Program-made: the position numbers and the translations under genes
Notes under the pieces: generated by a model
Told to the model about the DNA's origin: nothing
Seen by the model: only the letters and a program-made list of their open reading frames with translations
Database searches by the model: none
DNA from: Thermodesulfobacteriota bacterium
Lineage (GTDB): Bacteria > Desulfobacterota > Binatia > Bin18
Direction of reading: 5' to 3'
NCBI GenBank assembly: GCA_964291405.2
Contig: OZ219926.1
Coordinates: 1,408,001-1,472,000 of the forward strand
Length of the DNA: 64,000 nucleotides
Part shown: positions 2,717 to 33,200 of the stretch, one piece after another
How the letters are laid out: every line of letters starts with the position of its first letter
How positions within the stretch are numbered: the stretch's first letter is position 1

Positions 2717-2955
2717 CCCACCGGTGGTGTTCCCGGCCGAGACGGAGAGCATCAGCAGGTGCTGGCAAGTTATTAGAGCAGAATGTGGACTTCCGTCGTG
2801 TGAGCTCAGATGGGGCTTCTCCTTAGGCTGTGGACAGGCCTACCGTTGTCGCCAAGTCGTAAACGCTCGATCTCGATACCCCGACAACTTGAAAAGACCC
2901 TTGCCAAGACAAACCCGGTGTGACACGATCGGCTATCTTTAACTGGAGGGTATTT

Positions 2956-4230
2956 ATGGGGCTCAATAGCATCGAGAACAACACTGTGGGGGTTACGGAG
3001 AGCGTTTCATCGGCCTATGTGCCTCCTCTCCAACTCACCGTCGGGCAGCCGACACCCATCGCGGCGAACGGTGGTTTATCTTACATGTCGTTCGACCGGG
3101 ACGGGGACGCGGGAACCGCGGCGGCGATCGAAGCGGCGCTCCGCCAGATTAGGGAGGGGGAAGAGCAGGCGGTCATCGACATGATCGAGAGCGCTCCTCC
3201 TGGCCCGATCGAGACCAGGTGGGGTCTTGGGTTTCGGAGCTACGACGAGTGTCTGGACTATATTCGGGCGAACAACATCCAGGCTCCCGAAGGCGGCGTT
3301 GCACTGCCGCTGCCCTACACCATCCTCGAGCAGCCGTCCTACTCCATCGTCTCGTCCAACGCCATCTGGCGGGACCCGGCGCGTGCGGATGTGGCCAAAA
3401 TGTTTCGCAAGGAGGGGCAGAACATCAGTAGGGGATGTCTCTATTTTCCGCAAATCCTGCGCGATGCGCGCCGGATGGCAGAGTACTACCCCGGTCTCTC
3501 GCCCACGAGCCCCGAGTGTATGGACAAGCTCGGCGTCTCGCTCGCTCATATCGAATCGAAATGCCAGAATTTCTACGACGCCGCCGAGGTGGAGCGCGTC
3601 TTCTACCCGGAGATCGAGAAACTCCTGCTCGATTTCTTCCCCGGTGCGACCGACGCGTTCGTGTACAACCACGGCCTGTTTGACAAGGACTACACGGGCC
3701 CCGTCAAGGAAGATCAGGACAACAAGGACCCGGGGGTCAATACTTACTACGCCGATATCGTCCACAACGACCTGAACGACAACAGCGGCCGCGTGCGGTG
3801 CCGCGAACTGCTGACGAAGAACCTGCGCAACTTTGGGCGCCGGCAGCACTACACCGAGGCGGAGGCCGACGCAAAGATGTCGCGGCGGTTCATGTCGATC
3901 AACCTGGCCAAGCCGATGGAGACCGTGGGCCAGCACCCCTTTGTCCTGTGCGCCTGGCCGTCGTTTGCCGACCAGCCGTATATCACCAACTACCGGATCT
4001 ATGATGACCGCGTGGGCGAGACCACCCGCTTCACCTACCGTCCCAACCACGAGTGGTACTGGTTGCCGCAGCAGACATCGACCGAAGTGTCGATGCTCAA
4101 GTGTTACGACTCGGTCACCGACGGCTCGGTGTCGCGTTGGTCGTTCCACTCGGCCTGCATCGACCCGACTGCACCCAAGGACGCCCCGTGCCGCAAGAAC
4201 GTCGTCGTGCGCTCCTATATCTTCTTCTAG
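2956..4230 (+). CDS. CmcJ/NvfI-like (AsaB-type) oxidoreductase with long N-terminal extension
   Basis: RBS GGAGG before ATG 2956. HND motif, F.YRPNHEWYWLPQQ...EV.MLKCYDS and FHSA..DP.....R.NVVVR C-terminus typical of the family. Confidence 0.7.
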   Translation: MGLNSIENNTVGVTESVSSAYVPPLQLTVGQPTPIAANGGLSYMSFDRDGDAGTAAAIEAALRQIREGEEQAVIDMIESAPPGPIETRWGLGFRSYDECLDYIRANNIQAPEGGVALPLPYTILEQPSYSIVSSNAIWRDPARADVAKMFRKEGQNISRGCLYFPQILRDARRMAEYYPGLSPTSPECMDKLGVSLAHIESKCQNFYDAAEVERVFYPEIEKLLLDFFPGATDAFVYNHGLFDKDYTGPVKEDQDNKDPGVNTYYADIVHNDLNDNSGRVRCRELLTKNLRNFGRRQHYTEAEADAKMSRRFMSINLAKPMETVGQHPFVLCAWPSFADQPYITNYRIYDDRVGETTRFTYRPNHEWYWLPQQTSTEVSMLKCYDSVTDGSVSRWSFHSACIDPTAPKDAPCRKNVVVRSYIFF

Positions 4231-27646: not shown

Positions 27647-28785
27647 TGGAACCCCAGGGATACTGTGCGGACGCGTTCGCAGCCGTTCACGAGGCATTTC
27701 AGGAGAACTTTGCGACGGGCGAGGAGCTGGGCGCCAGCGCGTGTGTCGTCCACGACGGAGAAGTGGTCGTTGATCTGTGGGGGGGCTCCTCAGGGCCGAG
27801 TGGCGAGTCCTGGCAGCAGGACACCATCGTCAACGTATACTCCACCACCAAAACCATGGCCGCGGTCTGCATGTTGATGCTCGCCGACCGCGGTCTGATC
27901 GATTTCGACGCTCCGGTTGCGCGCTACTGGCCGGAGTTCGCTCAGAACGGCAAGGAGAGTGTCCTGGTTCGCCATGTGATGAGCCACTCGGCAGGGTTAT
28001 CGGGTTTCGACTCACGCGTCGAGATCGAGGAACTCTACAACTGGGATGATATCTGCGGCAGGTTGGCCCGCCAGGCACCCTGGTGGGAGCCCGGGACTGC
28101 CTCGGGATACCACGCCATTACGCAAGGCTATCTGCAGGGAGAAATCCTGCGCCGGGTCGACGGCCGCAGTCTGGGCACGTTCTTTCGCGAGGAGGTCGCG
28201 ACCCCGCTTAACGTCGATTTTCACATTGGGCTGGACACCCAACACGATGGACGCGTGGGTGAGATGGTTCCTCCTTCGGCGACCATGGACCAGATGCCGG
28301 GCGATCCGGATTCGATTGCCACGCGGACCTTTCGGTCTGCCGCGTTGACGGGCCGCGAGCCACAGACGCGCGCGTGGCGTGCGGCGGAGATTCCGGCCGC
28401 AGGAGGGATTGGCAATGCACGGGCCGTCGCCCGCGTGCATGGGGCACTGGCTGCGGGCGGCGCGCTTGACGGCGTCCGGCTGATGGCCCCTGAAACGGTA
28501 GCAGTGGCACAACAACGGCAGACTAATGGTAAGGATCTCGTGCTCGACGTGTGGATGCTGTTCGGCATGGGCTTTGGCTTGATGAACCCGCGGATTCCGT
28601 TTACGCCGAGCCCCGGCGCCTTCTACTGGGGCGGCTGGGGCGGGTCCATTGCCGTGGTTGACCCCGATACCCGCACTTCGATCGCCTATGTGATGAACAA
28701 AATGGGCGAAAGCACGCTGGGAGATCAGCGCTCGGCGAGGATTATCGCGGCGACCTATGCCTCACTGAAACAGGAAGGCCGGTGA
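27643..28785 (+). CDS. Beta-lactamase-family serine hydrolase (family VIII esterase)
   Basis: STTK (SxxK), HSAGL, WEPGTASGYH, WGGWGGS. Confidence 0.92.
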   Translation: MMEPQGYCADAFAAVHEAFQENFATGEELGASACVVHDGEVVVDLWGGSSGPSGESWQQDTIVNVYSTTKTMAAVCMLMLADRGLIDFDAPVARYWPEFAQNGKESVLVRHVMSHSAGLSGFDSRVEIEELYNWDDICGRLARQAPWWEPGTASGYHAITQGYLQGEILRRVDGRSLGTFFREEVATPLNVDFHIGLDTQHDGRVGEMVPPSATMDQMPGDPDSIATRTFRSAALTGREPQTRAWRAAEIPAAGGIGNARAVARVHGALAAGGALDGVRLMAPETVAVAQQRQTNGKDLVLDVWMLFGMGFGLMNPRIPFTPSPGAFYWGGWGGSIAVVDPDTRTSIAYVMNKMGESTLGDQRSARIIAATYASLKQEGR

Positions 28786-29690
28786 TGACCCAAGCAGTAG
28801 GGCCTAATCCGAACTACCGCTACGAGCCCAAGCCCGTTGATGAAATCGTTGTCAGGGCGTTCAACTTCGACTTTCCCGACGATCTCGACCCCAAGTGGGC
28901 AAAGAACTCGGTGGTCAGATCGCATATGTTCAACGGCCTTTCGTTGACCATGCCGTATCTTGAACCCTATTTGATCAAGTCGATCCGGCAAGCGCTGCCG
29001 CTTATTCGGGAGGAACGTCTTCGAGAAGACATCAAAGGGTTCTGCGGCCAGGAGTCCCGCCACTACGCGTGTCACCGGCGGCTCAACGAACTCATCAAGA
29101 AAAACGGCTATCCCGAGCTGACCGAAATCGAGCAGCGTATGGAGCGGTCTTACGCCCGTCTGCAAACGCGCAGTCTGGAGACCCAGCTCGCCTACAACGC
29201 CGGGTTCGAGACAATGACGGCGGGCTTTACCCGCTGGATGACCACAAAACGCTGGGCGCTGTGGGGCGGCAATTGCCCGTGGGTTTCCTCGTTCTGGGTG
29301 ATGCATATGGTAGAGGAAACGGAGCACAAAACCGTTGCCTATGATACCTATATGGCCTGTTCGGGCCGCTCTCTGAAGCGGGCAATCGGCGTTCTGCACG
29401 GCAGTTTTCATGTGCTCGGCTACGGCCTCATCGCCATGCGGGAAGCGCTACGCAAGGACGGTCTGTGGGGCCAGCCCGGTACGATGCTCGAACTCGCGAG
29501 AGAGATGGGCACCCTCCTCTGGAACGTTGGTCCCTCTCTGTTACGCGCTATGCGCCCAGGGCACAACCCGCGTTACGACGAAGACCCGCAGTGGCAAAAG
29601 GACTGGGTCGCGGCACACAAACACTTAGCGCCTGACGCACCCATTCCCTTGCTTGATACCTCCGACCCGGACGTTCCGGTGCCGTTCTGA
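28782..29690 (+). CDS. Predicted metal-dependent hydrolase / ferritin-like EXXH protein
   Basis: MPYLE, GQESRH, AGFE, HMVEETEHKTVAYD motifs. Confidence 0.82.
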   Translation: MMTQAVGPNPNYRYEPKPVDEIVVRAFNFDFPDDLDPKWAKNSVVRSHMFNGLSLTMPYLEPYLIKSIRQALPLIREERLREDIKGFCGQESRHYACHRRLNELIKKNGYPELTEIEQRMERSYARLQTRSLETQLAYNAGFETMTAGFTRWMTTKRWALWGGNCPWVSSFWVMHMVEETEHKTVAYDTYMACSGRSLKRAIGVLHGSFHVLGYGLIAMREALRKDGLWGQPGTMLELAREMGTLLWNVGPSLLRAMRPGHNPRYDEDPQWQKDWVAAHKHLAPDAPIPLLDTSDPDVPVPF

Positions 29691-29796
29691 GCAGAACCAA
29701 TCAATAAAAGTCGGAACCGTCGAGTGACCGCCAGGGGCAAGCCGCCGCGCGCCAAGGTTCCCCGGAAGGAACGCCCGACGCGCGGCATATTCTTGT

Positions 29797-30786
29797 TTAA
29801 CCCAGATGGGGGAGGACGTCGGCGGCAAAGCGCTGCATAGACCCCCGCGACACAGCGCGATCCATGCCGGGGAAATGGAAGAACAGCACGAGTTCATCTA
29901 TGCCCGACTCAGCTTCAAACGCTTTGATCTCATCGAGCACCTTTTGTGGTGGGCCGGTGAAGAAATTACTCAGGTCACGGAATCCATCAGACGTATTCGT
30001 GCGGTCTTCTGGTTTGTCATTGGCTTCATGCATCCACTTGGCGTAATAATCGACCTGGTAGTTGACGTGCGGCCAGACTTTATCTAACTCGCTGTCGTCT
30101 TTTTCGGTCACATAGCACGAACGCAGGATGCGGACCTGGCCGGGCTCGCGGCCGAGGTCGGTACAGGCCGTCCGGTAAATATCAATGTCTTCGGTGTTGC
30201 CAATGGGCAGAAAATGACAGCCCATGCGTGCCACGCGCTGAATGCCTTTTTCGCTCCGCGCCCCAACCATCAGGGGTGGCCCTCCAGGCTGGGCTGGGGA
30301 TGGCGTGACCATAATGTCGGTGTAGTTCCAAAACTTCCCAACATGAGAAAATGTTTCCCCAGACCACGACTTGCGGAGGATGTCGACACCTTCGGTCAGC
30401 GCTGAGCCTCGTCGCTTGTGATCCTTTTCAAAGCCTGTAAACTCGCCTACGCGATAGCCCTGGCCCAGGCCAAGAATGAGCCGGCCTCGCGAAATGAGAT
30501 CGACGACCGCTGCGTCTTCGGCGACACGAACGGGGTCGTGCAGGGGGAGGAGTAAGACGAAGGTGCCGAGACCGATGCGCTGTGTTCTGGCAGCCACCGC
30601 TGAGAGGACGGCGAGCTGGGAGGGGAGATAGCCATCCTCAAGAAAATGGTGCTCCGTCGTCCACGCGGTATCAAAGCCGAGCTCTTCAACGGCAACCATA
30701 TCGTCGATGGTATCGTTATACAGGTCGGCGTAGGGTTGCGCCCATTGGGGCGGATTCCGAAAGTCAAATAAACAGCCTGTCTTCAT
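29797..30786 (-). CDS. LLM-class flavin-dependent oxidoreductase
   Basis: WTTEHH, PVRVAEDAAVVDLISRGRLILGLGQGYR. Confidence 0.9.
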   Translation of the reverse strand: MKTGCLFDFRNPPQWAQPYADLYNDTIDDMVAVEELGFDTAWTTEHHFLEDGYLPSQLAVLSAVAARTQRIGLGTFVLLLPLHDPVRVAEDAAVVDLISRGRLILGLGQGYRVGEFTGFEKDHKRRGSALTEGVDILRKSWSGETFSHVGKFWNYTDIMVTPSPAQPGGPPLMVGARSEKGIQRVARMGCHFLPIGNTEDIDIYRTACTDLGREPGQVRILRSCYVTEKDDSELDKVWPHVNYQVDYYAKWMHEANDKPEDRTNTSDGFRDLSNFFTGPPQKVLDEIKAFEAESGIDELVLFFHFPGMDRAVSRGSMQRFAADVLPHLG

Positions 30787-31002
30787 TACCTTGCTCCTTT
30801 CGTCAGGGCGAAAATGTTTGGTCTTGCTTGAATAGACGAGGTCTCGTGTCCACGACGGGCCGGTGGGCCTACATGTGAGCGGGAGTCGTCAGAATAAGAC
30901 GGGAATCCTCCAGCCCATCATTCCGATAATGGACAATGGCCCGATGGTCGGGGTTCTGCACCAGTTTCCCTTTCTTCCAGCGACCTCACACGATGCACGG
31001 CC

Positions 31003-32094
31003 TTATCCGAGTGTATTCACCGCAGATGGGAACGTGTTGATCCCCAGCGCTTCCCGAAAATCCGCGGTGGGTTGCACGACCATCGCATCGACGCTGATGC
31101 CAATCGCATTGGCGACGCGGTCCAGCATGCTGAAGTTGCCGCCGATGATCGACGCCGTCGTGACCGCCTCGGGACCTAATCGCTCGGCAATGGCATCCCG
31201 TGCGGCCGCCAGTTCTGCGGTATCGGGTTTCATCAAAGCACCGGCGAATCTCACGAGTTCGCACCCGTGTTCCACCCCGCTGTCAATACGTGCATCGATC
31301 GCGCCAGCTAACTCGTAGCTTCGATCGTGGGCTTTTCCGCTCTCCCGGAGCAGATGGGCATGCCACGTGGTTCAGTAGAAACACAGGTTCTGTTCCGAAA
31401 CCTTGGTTGCGACGAGTTCTATCTGTGCTCGCGAAAGTGCGTGGTCTGATGTGGCGTGAAAATTGAGCAAATGCTCAGCTCCGAAATACTGTTGACTGAC
31501 CAGGTTAATCACGCGGCGGGCTTCATCCGGGACGAGGCTCACGGCGCGAAAAATATTCCCCGCCGGACTTTCTCCATATAACGATTCGGCTAATGCGCCA
31601 CCTGCCGGAGCGCTGGGGACACTCGCGGTAAAGAATCCCTCATCGACGGCTTCGGCGGGGCGTTCGAAAGAGGGGAGCGTATCGTCGGCGAGCTCCGGTA
31701 ATTTTCGGGGTGGTATGCCAAGACCGCGGGCAAAGACGTCAAGATTGGAGAGTCGCGACACCAGCGAGACGATTTCAACATACGCGCCCTCGCTCACACC
31801 CTGGGCTTGGATGTTCTGGCAAAACTTGCGATCGATGTTTTGCGAATCAACCGCCACCGCCCGTGCCAATCGCACTGCCGCGTCAGGGAGTTTGGCCTGG
31901 GCGACCAGCTTCTCATCGTCGACCGATTCTTGTAAGCCCTGTTCGCATTGAGCGATACGCGCAGTGGCGGCAATGGCGGTTCTCTGTGCGGCGGTACCCC
32001 ACGTACCGCCGCGAGCATAGGACTGCATTTCGTCGACATGTAGGGTTTCAACCGTAGGAGAAACGGGGTAGCGCGAATCTGCGTAAAGCGGCAT
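31003..32094 (-). CDS. AhpD-related probable selenoprotein (363 aa; Sec at TGA 31372-31374; CFYU motif)
   Basis: 240-aa ORF ends LSRAQIELVATKVSEQNLCFY-TGA; the frame continues without stops (TTWHAHLLRESG...) into the 90-aa ORF to TAA at 31003; SECIS-like hairpin follows the TGA. Confidence 0.82.
31326..31371 (-). promoter_or_regulatory. Putative bacterial SECIS element
   Basis: mRNA after UGA: lower stem CGUGG/CCACG, upper stem UCUGCUC/GAGCGGA, loop CGGGA beginning 24 nt after the UGA. Confidence 0.65.
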
Positions 32095-32274
32095 TGGAAT
32101 GAACCCTCCTCTCTCGAAATTGTACTTCGCTTATCAGTCATTTCAATAAACGAGGAAATGCCGTCGTGCAAATGCGCTCGTGTTGGGTTTACCTCTTGAC
32201 AAGCCGCTCTACGGGTCGACAATGCCTCTCAAGAGGGCGAACCCCGACAACAACAGAGGACGGAGGAGCTTACC

Positions 32275-33072
32275 ATGAGCACAATCTTGCGTTACCTTCA
32301 CCACCCCGCATCACAGCCGTGCCGCGCAGCGCATCAGTTCATGCTGGAGAACGACATTCCCTTTGAACTCGAGTTGGTCGATATCACCACCGATATCAAC
32401 GAGCGGCCGGAGTTCCGGGACAAGTACAACCCGACGGGGCAGGTGCCGATTCTCGTGGATGGTGACTTTGTAATCTGGGAGAGTGCGGCCATTGCCTTCT
32501 ACTTGAACGAGAAGTTTGAATGTCCCGCCCACTGGTTCGGGCGCGACACCCGGCAAAGAGGGCTTATTCAGCAGTTTCTGCAATGGTACGCCTACACGCT
32601 CCGCCTCGGCGGAGGCGCGTTCCACTGGACGATCTTCGCCCCAATGATCTACGGCTATGATAAGGACTTTTCCGCGGAGATAAAGAAAGGGCGCTATATT
32701 CTGTATGAGTCCCTTGACCTCCTAGAGACCTATTGGCTCAAAGACCGTGCTTATGTGTGCGGCGACGAGATCAGCTATGCGGACCTAGCCGCCTACCAGG
32801 ACCTCGTTTCCCATGATGCCGGGAAGATCATTCCGGACGGGGTGTGGCAGGAGCACCCTAAGGTCAGGGCATGGTTCGAGACAGTGGCCGCACGTCCGCA
32901 CGCAAAGACGGTAAGTGCGTGGCAATATGAGAACGTTGGAAAAATACTGAACGACGGTGTGAAATTTGAGTTTAGGCGGAAAACCGCGGTCTTAAAGGGA
33001 ACAGAGGTCCACAGCGGCCACAACCACGGCATTCTTTACGCCGGCCAGGACGATAGCTACTTAAAGGAGTAG
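32275..33072 (+). CDS. dcmA: Dichloromethane (dihalomethane) dehalogenase, theta-class GST
   Basis: Near-continuous match to recalled DcmA, especially Methylophilus DM11 type: LRYLHHPASQPCRA, YNPTGQVPILVDG, WYAYTLRLGGGAFHWTIFAPMIYGYDKDF, HAKTVSAWQYENV, RKTAVLKGTEV.SGHN; catalytic Ser retained. Confidence 0.9.
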   Translation: MSTILRYLHHPASQPCRAAHQFMLENDIPFELELVDITTDINERPEFRDKYNPTGQVPILVDGDFVIWESAAIAFYLNEKFECPAHWFGRDTRQRGLIQQFLQWYAYTLRLGGGAFHWTIFAPMIYGYDKDFSAEIKKGRYILYESLDLLETYWLKDRAYVCGDEISYADLAAYQDLVSHDAGKIIPDGVWQEHPKVRAWFETVAARPHAKTVSAWQYENVGKILNDGVKFEFRRKTAVLKGTEVHSGHNHGILYAGQDDSYLKE

Positions 33073-33200
33073 GAGGCCACCGGAGGCACCACCTAGGAGT
33101 CCTGTGGTTGAGAGAGCGATAGAAAAATGTCTTGATGGTTATCGTAGCGACTTATGCCTCACTGAAACGGTGACATTGTTGCCATAACCCGGAGGATATA

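Follow-up and report, generated by a model that had tools for sequence, protein, structure and literature searches.

A DM11-type dichloromethane dehalogenase gene beside an AhpD-like selenoprotein gene in a Candidatus Binatia genome

Results and discussion

The window examined here is a 64-kb stretch (64,000 nucleotides; contig OZ219926.1, positions 1,408,001 to 1,472,000) of a Candidatus Binatia (Binatota) genome. It carries dcmA (32275..33072, + strand), whose product is a theta-like glutathione S-transferase (GST) of 265 amino acids (aa). As judged from its sequence, this protein is a functional-looking dichloromethane (dihalomethane) dehalogenase (EC 4.5.1.3) of the DM11 type and adds a member to a known family. 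The enzyme probably acts on biogenic dihalomethanes, as the product of an accessory gene that shares a 4.4-kb block with the gene of an AhpD-like partner. What is known of DcmA comes almost entirely from a few solvent-degrading isolates with near-identical dcmRABC islets. The presence of dcmA in a Binatota genome and the hypothesis that DcmA evolved on natural dihalomethanes are already in print. New here are the absence of DcmR, DcmB, and DcmC alongside dcmA, the AhpD-like selenoprotein partner, the repeat-bounded indel block, and how broad the family is, with an uncharacterised subclade that has the gene order dcmR-dcmA-dcmB.

The dcmA product and its relatives

The open reading frame (ORF) of dcmA is intact and starts with ATG. 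Its product contains the Pfam domains GST_N (thioredoxin-like) and GST_C, and the closest solved structures in PDB are those of the human theta-class GSTs GSTT1 and GSTT2 (best, GSTT1 2c3n, E 3.3e-28), which identifies it as a theta-class-like cytosolic GST. NCBIfam has no model for DcmA, and none of its equivalogs matches the window protein at cutoff. Human GSTT1 also conjugates dichloromethane. It shares the aligned active-site motif SQPCRA, but it is a distant relative without the clade-specific residues of DcmA or the C-terminal block RKTAVLKGxE...GHN.

A search over about 5.8 billion clustered proteins gave 226 matches among 723 candidates. DcmA of Methylophilus leisingeri DM11 (P0014; UniProt/Swiss-Prot P43387), a 'group B' dehalogenase, is 72% identical to the window protein with 100% query coverage (E 1.6e-134). 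Global identities are 72% between the window protein and DM11 DcmA, 67% between the window protein and DcmA of Methylorubrum extorquens DM4 (P0126, P21161), and 58% between DM11 and DM4. The window protein is nearer to each of the two characterised enzymes than these are to one another. An earlier note on this DNA, made from the letters alone, had named DM11 DcmA as a close full-length homologue with long identical blocks, and these identities confirm it. Such blocks are present, and a 14-sequence alignment spanning the DcmA clade has 89 invariant columns. The DM11 enzyme is nearly the same length (267 aa) and has both the N-terminal motif with its Ser and the conserved C-terminal block. It differs at 28% of residues and comes from a betaproteobacterial methylotroph isolated on dichloromethane, whereas the window host belongs to Binatia. 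The DM4-type enzyme (288 aa), which a cluster look-up places with Hyphomicrobium and Ancylobacter enzymes (P0039), has an N-terminal extension and a 3-residue insert that are absent from the window protein.

Phylogenetic placement, which the earlier note had proposed as a check, agrees with the identities. Two trees were made: a quick one with 68 rows (the window protein, P0002-P0052, DM4 DcmA, and 15 rows from the group at 54-57% identity) and a careful one with 58 rows (49 clade and 9 outgroup rows), which includes copies translated from named genomes. When rooted with the outgroup, a DcmA clade spans both characterised enzymes and the window protein. The stem that sets it apart from the closest other GSTs is long: 0.53 in the quick tree (Shimodaira-Hasegawa-like approximate likelihood ratio test, SH-aLRT, 100) and 0.57 in the careful tree (support 100/100). 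Within the clade there are three subclades: the DM11-type (100/91), to which the window protein belongs; the DM4-type, with proteins of 287-289 aa; and a large uncharacterised one with proteins of about 268 aa.

The N-terminal Ser claimed in the earlier note is present. Ser13 (counting the initiator Met) is invariant in all 14 sequences of the alignment, near-invariant in the 58-row alignment, and aligned with the SQPCRA motif of GSTT1. We take this residue (Ser12 of the mature DM11 enzyme) to be the catalytic one; a search of the open literature turned up no papers on Ser12 mutagenesis. Since outgroup GSTs also have it, Ser13 is necessary, not diagnostic of DcmA. Diagnostic information comes from 19 positions, near-invariant among the 49 clade rows, whose residues never occur in the 9 outgroup rows: T38, T39, Y105, Y107, L111, G113, H117, W118, I120, Y126, F132, Y168, W216, Q217, Y218, F233, A238, V239, and L240. 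The window protein has all 19.

The nearest relatives of DM11 DcmA itself are not the Binatia copies. They are a copy from a metagenome-assembled genome (MAG) of Piscirickettsiaceae (L030) and a metagenomic protein, P0009 (99/96), and the careful tree places DM11 DcmA within a group of gammaproteobacterial sequences next to those of Binatia. A 245-aa protein of Tara origin (P0122) is also in the 90% cluster of DM11 DcmA. Close relatives of the DM11-type enzyme thus occur in environmental data. The window locus and its relatives show natural ones in marine-type Gammaproteobacteria and Binatia. To this extent the window gene is, as had been anticipated, informative about the origin of dcmA. It is so weakly: the direction of dcmA transfer is not readable from the tree.

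The uncharacterised subclade of about 268 aa (L032-L067, L071) is 61-71% identical to the window protein. According to MAG titles its hosts are Alphaproteobacteria, Rhodospirillales, Kiloniellales, Hyphomicrobiales, Gammaproteobacteria, Myxococcota, and Burkholderiaceae. Many of its loci keep the order dcmR-dcmA-dcmB without the insertion sequence (IS) context of the isolates.

The window gene is under purifying selection. The ratio of nonsynonymous to synonymous substitution (dN/dS) is 0.055-0.104, at dS 0.23-0.53, in all eight computable comparisons with Binatia orthologues; three more were not computable (two with saturated dS and one with an indel that misaligns codons). GC content at third codon positions (GC3) is 0.711 in dcmA and 0.596-0.764 in its neighbours, and overall GC is 0.553, slightly under that of the genome (0.578).

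Absence of the dcmRABC islet

The dcm proteins of Hyphomicrobium GJ21 (L069) served as references. In this locus, which is flanked by a DDE_5 transposase, DcmR has helix-turn-helix (HTH) and MEDS domains, DcmB belongs to the CmcJ/NvfI family, and DcmC has no family. In the window the gene divergent from dcmA encodes the AhpD-like selenoprotein instead of DcmR, and the gene downstream encodes a nitroreductase instead of DcmB. The earlier note had claimed that dcmR, dcmB, and dcmC are all missing. For dcmR and dcmC this extends to the whole host genome, where neither has a match (tblastn, E<=0.01), but a DcmB-like gene 55% identical to GJ21 DcmB exists 1.67 Mb from dcmA (G000:C3:3111661-3112740, G000 being the host genome), among monooxygenase, GST, major facilitator superfamily (MFS), and Rieske genes. 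Weaker DcmB paralogues are also found by tblastn. The DcmB-like gene occurs in 19/20 dcmA-positive and 19/35 dcmA-negative genomes of the family, and it is therefore not linked to dcmA; the idea that it travels with dcmA is ruled out.

The further claim that no IS elements flank the gene is borne out: none of the 56 non-overlapping window ORFs of at least 130 aa has a Pfam transposase or integrase domain. Thus, compared with the islets of M. extorquens DM4 and Hyphomicrobium GJ21, the locus is alike in having a DcmA of the same clade (67% identical to P21161) and a DcmB-like gene in the genome. It differs in lacking DcmR, DcmC, an adjacent DcmB, and flanking transposases, with only a 35-nt direct repeat bounding the block. 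The window dcmA is a chromosomal accessory gene and does not lie on a dcmRABC/IS islet.

Neighbouring genes were clustered for 62 of the 68 dcmA loci described below; five partial matches and a second copy were excluded. In 25 of the 62, dcmA is immediately followed by a DcmB-like gene, and in 21 a DcmR-like gene is found upstream in divergent orientation, in both cases almost all outside Binatia. Hence the order dcmR-dcmA-dcmB is no peculiarity of solvent degraders: uncultured Alpha- and Gammaproteobacteria and Myxococcota commonly have it.

The divergent AhpD-like selenoprotein

The gene divergent from dcmA encodes an AhpD-related CxxU selenoprotein paralogue of 363 aa (31003..32094, - strand). 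An in-frame TGA at 31372..31374 (- strand), read through as selenocysteine (Sec) U241, lies in the motif C-F-Y-U-T-T-W-H. A list of ORFs made with translation table 11 splits this gene into a 240-aa ORF (31372-32094) and a spurious antisense ORF of 151 aa (30863-31318). The latter is the opposite-strand shadow of the read-through extension, which stops at TAA 31003-31005. The protein belongs to NCBIfam NF041238 (AhpD_rel_CFYUT, 'alkylhydroperoxidase-related (seleno)protein'), with 301.5 bits against a cutoff of 175 and Sec at the CxxU position. The host has a selenocysteine tRNA (tRNA-SeC, G000:C3:2984151-2984245) and SelB (393 bits, cutoff 242). A hairpin 5 nt past the UGA (-21.7 kcal/mol, z -1.4), the candidate selenocysteine insertion sequence (SECIS), is weak and not significantly stable on its own.

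Across the family NF041238 has 40 matches. A single in-frame stop, TGA, is found in 36; two have TGA and another stop, and two are fragments that end before the Sec position. The copies beside dcmA form a distinct, lower-scoring paralogue class. Of 17 copies at 288-308 bits, 16 lie 186-2730 bp from dcmA, whereas none of the 16 copies above 310 bits is near dcmA. The lower-scoring class is full-length only in dcmA-carrying genomes and absent from the dcmA-less genomes of the family. An adjacent copy is present in 17/20 carriers, and the 240-aa ORF is divergent from dcmA in 16/17 Binatia-titled loci, with an outer context that varies.

Co-variation of the two genes on the rpoB tree described below (20/28 genomes of the genus) is underpowered: of four independent pairs three are concordant, none is opposite, and one shows no difference (p 0.25). 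Neighbouring genes are expected to be lost together regardless of what they do, so their joint loss is not counted as evidence of a functional link. The pairing is one of gene adjacency, and no claim is made that the two proteins bind each other. AhpD-like CxxU selenoproteins are well known from surveys of marine selenoproteomes, where excerpts of one survey call them 'AhpD-like 1/2' (PMC2398784). A literature search turned up no link between them and DcmA.

The other AhpD_rel_CFYUT copy of the host, which is of the higher-scoring class, lies elsewhere (L089 4424-7010; G000:C3:1340423-1343009). It belongs to a same-strand cluster of two Baeyer-Villiger monooxygenase (BVMO) genes, a GST gene, a short-chain dehydrogenase/reductase (SDR) gene, and the AhpD-like gene. 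Together with the pairing at dcmA, this places both host copies within about 1 kb of a GST gene.

Indel block, candidate regulatory sites, and RNA evidence

dcmA and the AhpD-like gene lie in a presence/absence block (28772..33178, no strand assigned). In G297, a dcmA-less genome of the same genus, a beta-lactamase-like gene is followed 147 bp on by the nitroreductase gene, and the whole block is cleanly missing. This junction marks 28772-33178 as a single presence/absence unit. Besides the two genes, the block contains a Metal_hydrol/PF10118 gene (28782-29690, +) and a luciferase-like monooxygenase gene (29797-30786, -). It is bounded by a 35-nt direct repeat (family D1), found by repeat search and at the G297 junction. 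The left copy (28737..28771, +) is the 3' end of the beta-lactamase-like gene and the right copy (33134..33168, +) lies between dcmA and the nitroreductase gene; the two are 4397 bp apart and 86% identical.

The 180-bp spacer between the divergent genes has two sigma-70-like promoter candidates back to back, each with 10/12 consensus matches. That of dcmA (32196..32223, +) consists of TTGACA, 16 nt, and GACAAT, and that of the AhpD-like gene (32119..32146, -) consists of TTGAAA, 16 nt, and TACAAT. Both fall on invariant blocks when 14 intergenic sequences of Binatia are aligned; in this alignment TTGACA of the dcmA candidate is invariant and GACAATGC nearly so. Transcription is predicted to start near 32230 (+) for dcmA and near 32112 (-) for the AhpD-like gene. 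A ribosome-binding site (RBS), GGAGGAG (32262..32268, +), 6 nt 5' of the dcmA ATG, is kept in most rows of the alignment. A short inverted repeat (32225-32250) follows closely on the predicted -10 element of dcmA. It reads CCTCT..AGAGG here and CTCGC..GCGAG in the majority of relatives, with both arms differing from genome to genome, and may serve as an operator or form a hairpin in the 5' untranslated region (5'-UTR).

Four RNA libraries, which come from three studies and are labelled sponge or marine metagenome, contain contigs that overlap parts of both dcmA and the AhpD-like gene. In two libraries the contigs are 99-100% identical to the window (e.g., 0 differences over 228 nt). The stretches without cover (31354-31680, 32117-32225, and beyond 33534) are uninformative, as contigs cannot show absence.

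Distribution and history of dcmA

A scan of one genome per prokaryote species found 68 dcmA loci, with full-length copies in 62 species genomes. Together with the 49 cluster representatives in the clade, this makes the family a broad one in uncultured bacteria. All copies at 89-97% identity to the window gene belong to records that bear Candidatus Binatia or Binatota in their titles. The earlier note had placed the gene outside the known methylotroph context, and this is not supported. Passages in PMC8262859 describe Binatota as predicted methylotrophs, link Bin18 to sponges, and note dcmA in one genome of the Bin18 order. The dcmA of that MAG has a host of the same phylum and the same functional call, and most likely belongs to the same orthologue group. 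There it is the subject of one annotation-based sentence; the phylogeny, context, distribution, and selenoprotein partner are given here. A paper on methane cycling in sponge Binatota makes no mention of dichloromethane or dehalogenases. Two further literature matches to 'dcmA' were false, one being 'DC_MAG' labels and the other 'DCM^a^', which stands for deep chlorophyll maximum.

With presence called at E<=1e-60, dcmA is found in 1/201 genomes of a sample of the phylum, namely in the window's own, and in 20/401 genomes of the class, all of them within the window's own family. None of 346 genomes in 19 other families of the class has it. Within the family 19/54 other genomes carry dcmA, and within the genus 16/27. 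Three loci with DM11-type dcmA (L026, L027, and L075) come from third-party annotation (TPA) MAGs titled 'uncultured Enterobacteriaceae bacterium'. L026 (G506) and L027 (G265) are placed in the window's Binatia genus by the genome collection, and the titles look mislabelled.

A tree of rpoB covers 20 of the 28 genomes of the genus; eight were left out (six with no rpoB match, one with a split match, and one with a partial match). A crown clade (100/99) has dcmA in 12/14 species, and the two without it, G297 and G412, are nested among carriers. dcmA is missing from five deeper species; in G265, the deepest, the copy is divergent. Parsimony favours a single gain at the base of the 14-species crown clade and two later losses. 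One relative has a second, truncated copy of the two genes (L070, OX638322.1 605445-625954; G498:C1:612881-615960), with dcmA residues 1-172 interrupted by an internal TGA, beside a partial AhpD-like gene. It is apparently a decaying duplicate.

The locus and its relatives show that dcmA can last for long under purifying selection (dS up to about 0.5) without DcmR, DcmC, or IS elements, in support of the published view that the enzyme is older than industrial dichloromethane. They are also concrete candidates for tests of natural substrates.

Proposed function and alternatives

By analogy with the DM11 and DM4 enzymes, DcmA would bind glutathione (GSH), with Ser13 stabilising the thiolate. The thiolate would then displace one halide from a dihalomethane such as CH2Cl2, CH2Br2, or mixed forms. 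The resulting S-halomethylglutathione would hydrolyse to S-hydroxymethylglutathione, which is expected to be in equilibrium with formaldehyde and GSH and could be oxidised by the class III alcohol dehydrogenase of the Binatia host. Formate may enter one-carbon (C1) metabolism via formate-tetrahydrofolate ligase. The role of DcmA would be detoxification, a minor supply of C1 units, or both.

Several of these steps have candidate genes in the host genome. GshB (399.9 bits, cutoff 299) and two GCS2-type ligase candidates (214 and 183 bits) indicate that the host makes glutathione; GshA of the E. coli type is not found in this genome. S-(hydroxymethyl)glutathione dehydrogenase (AdhIII, C3:288218-289321) scores 688 bits against a cutoff of 544. 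It is encoded next to LytB and acyl-CoA dehydrogenase genes, and the usual frmA/frmB pairing is missing. Formate-tetrahydrofolate ligase (FTHFS, 817 bits) is also above its cutoff. These results bear on the formaldehyde oxidation routes that the earlier note had asked to be checked, whose missing parts are taken up below.

The natural substrates are likely to be biogenic dihalomethanes, because marine- and sponge-labelled libraries hold near-identical sequence and because DM11-type enzymes prefer dibromomethane, with a higher kcat and a lower KM for it according to passages in PMC8913905. The same passages describe DcmA as broadly distributed and divergent, and suggest that it may have evolved on natural dibromomethane. 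An excerpt of PMC10385969 reports the dcmA gene only in samples from natural environments. The earlier note's picture of a natural reservoir enzyme for biogenic dihalomethanes is plausible and already in print (PMC8913905, PMC10385969).

Several observations weigh against a functional dihalomethane dehalogenase. S-formylglutathione hydrolase (esterase-D type, FghA, TIGR02821) has 0 matches in the 97.5%-complete genome and fdhA-type formaldehyde dehydrogenase has none at cutoff in it, so that the GSH-linked route of formaldehyde oxidation looks incomplete. The genome-wide lack of dcmR and dcmC belongs here as well, because all DcmA-based dichloromethane degraders known by 2020 had dcmR, dcmB, and dcmC, usually with flanking transposases, according to an excerpt of PMC7760279. 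The 28% of residues that differ from DM11 leave room for a shift in specificity. The gene is dispensable, with no match in 11/27 other genomes of the genus. The luciferase-like monooxygenase and the PF10118 protein encoded in the block could point to a different pathway. The RNA evidence consists of low-depth assembled contigs, for which carry-over of DNA is possible.

In a more specific form of the proposal, which we put forward tentatively, DcmA and its dedicated AhpD-like selenoprotein may form a two-gene module that, in Binatia associated with sponges and marine habitats, takes the place of the DcmR/B/C context and makes the use of biogenic dihalomethanes (e.g., CH2Br2) safe. The CxxU selenol/thiol protein would trap or resolve the reactive S-halomethylglutathione, or repair thiol adducts. 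If so, the ancestral setting of DcmA would be natural halomethane turnover, and at least two accessory solutions would exist, dcmR-dcmB in the large uncharacterised proteobacterial subclade and the selenoprotein in Binatia. The conserved pairing in any case gives an experimentally accessible clue to how cells deal with the genotoxic intermediate of the DcmA reaction.

The alternative that survives best is that a GST of the DcmA clade has been recruited elsewhere. It would process some other electrophile (e.g., a halogenated metabolite derived from the host or the community) together with the AhpD-like selenoprotein and perhaps the monooxygenase and the PF10118 protein, and dihalomethane turnover would be a side activity. 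The missing canonical partners and FghA are in keeping with it, as are the conserved AhpD-like neighbour in 17/20 carriers, the GST in the cluster of the other AhpD_rel_CFYUT copy, and the dense array of oxygenases, hydrolases, and three further GSTs in the window. We nevertheless regard it as unlikely, since the window protein retains 19/19 clade-specific residues common to both characterised dehalogenases and is nearer to each of them than they are to each other. In addition, the outer genes of the block, which would supply the monooxygenase and the PF10118 protein, are not conserved with dcmA in other Binatia contexts.

It is very improbable that dcmA, once transferred long ago, is now decaying or silent and without function. 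Patchy presence in the genus (16/27 other genomes) and the truncated second copy with its internal TGA in one relative (G498) speak for this reading, but the window ORF is intact with dN/dS of 0.055-0.104, its promoter candidate and RBS are conserved, and contigs from RNA libraries cover the gene. Least credible, and already largely refuted, is an artefact of binning or assembly, or a very recent transfer from a pollutant-degrading proteobacterium: against an estimated contamination of 4.62% and the slightly low GC of dcmA stand the position of the window inside a 4.9-Mb contig of the 4.95-Mb genome, orthologues with conserved flanks in 19 other genomes of the family, GC3 typical of the neighbours, the lack of mobile-element genes in 64 kb, and a nearest isolate enzyme that is only 72% identical. 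A functional DM11-type DcmA acting on biogenic dihalomethanes is the probable reading.

Other genes of the window

The 64-kb window is an unusually dense array of oxidoreductase and hydrolase genes, in which mobile-element genes were not found. It encodes at least six luciferase-like monooxygenases, two proteins of the BVMO or flavin-containing monooxygenase (FMO) type, two P450s, three GSTs besides DcmA, a Rieske oxygenase, and an epoxide hydrolase. There are also dehydrogenase genes, two beta-lactamase-like genes, two PF10118 genes, and several amidohydrolase genes. An ORF of 436 aa (2920-4227) between luciferase-like monooxygenase genes has no Pfam match. Its C-terminal part (3571-4227) is 25% identical to GJ21 DcmB, indicating a distant CmcJ/NvfI-like paralogue. 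Two further paralogues of this kind lie just upstream of the window (C3:1364524-1368242).

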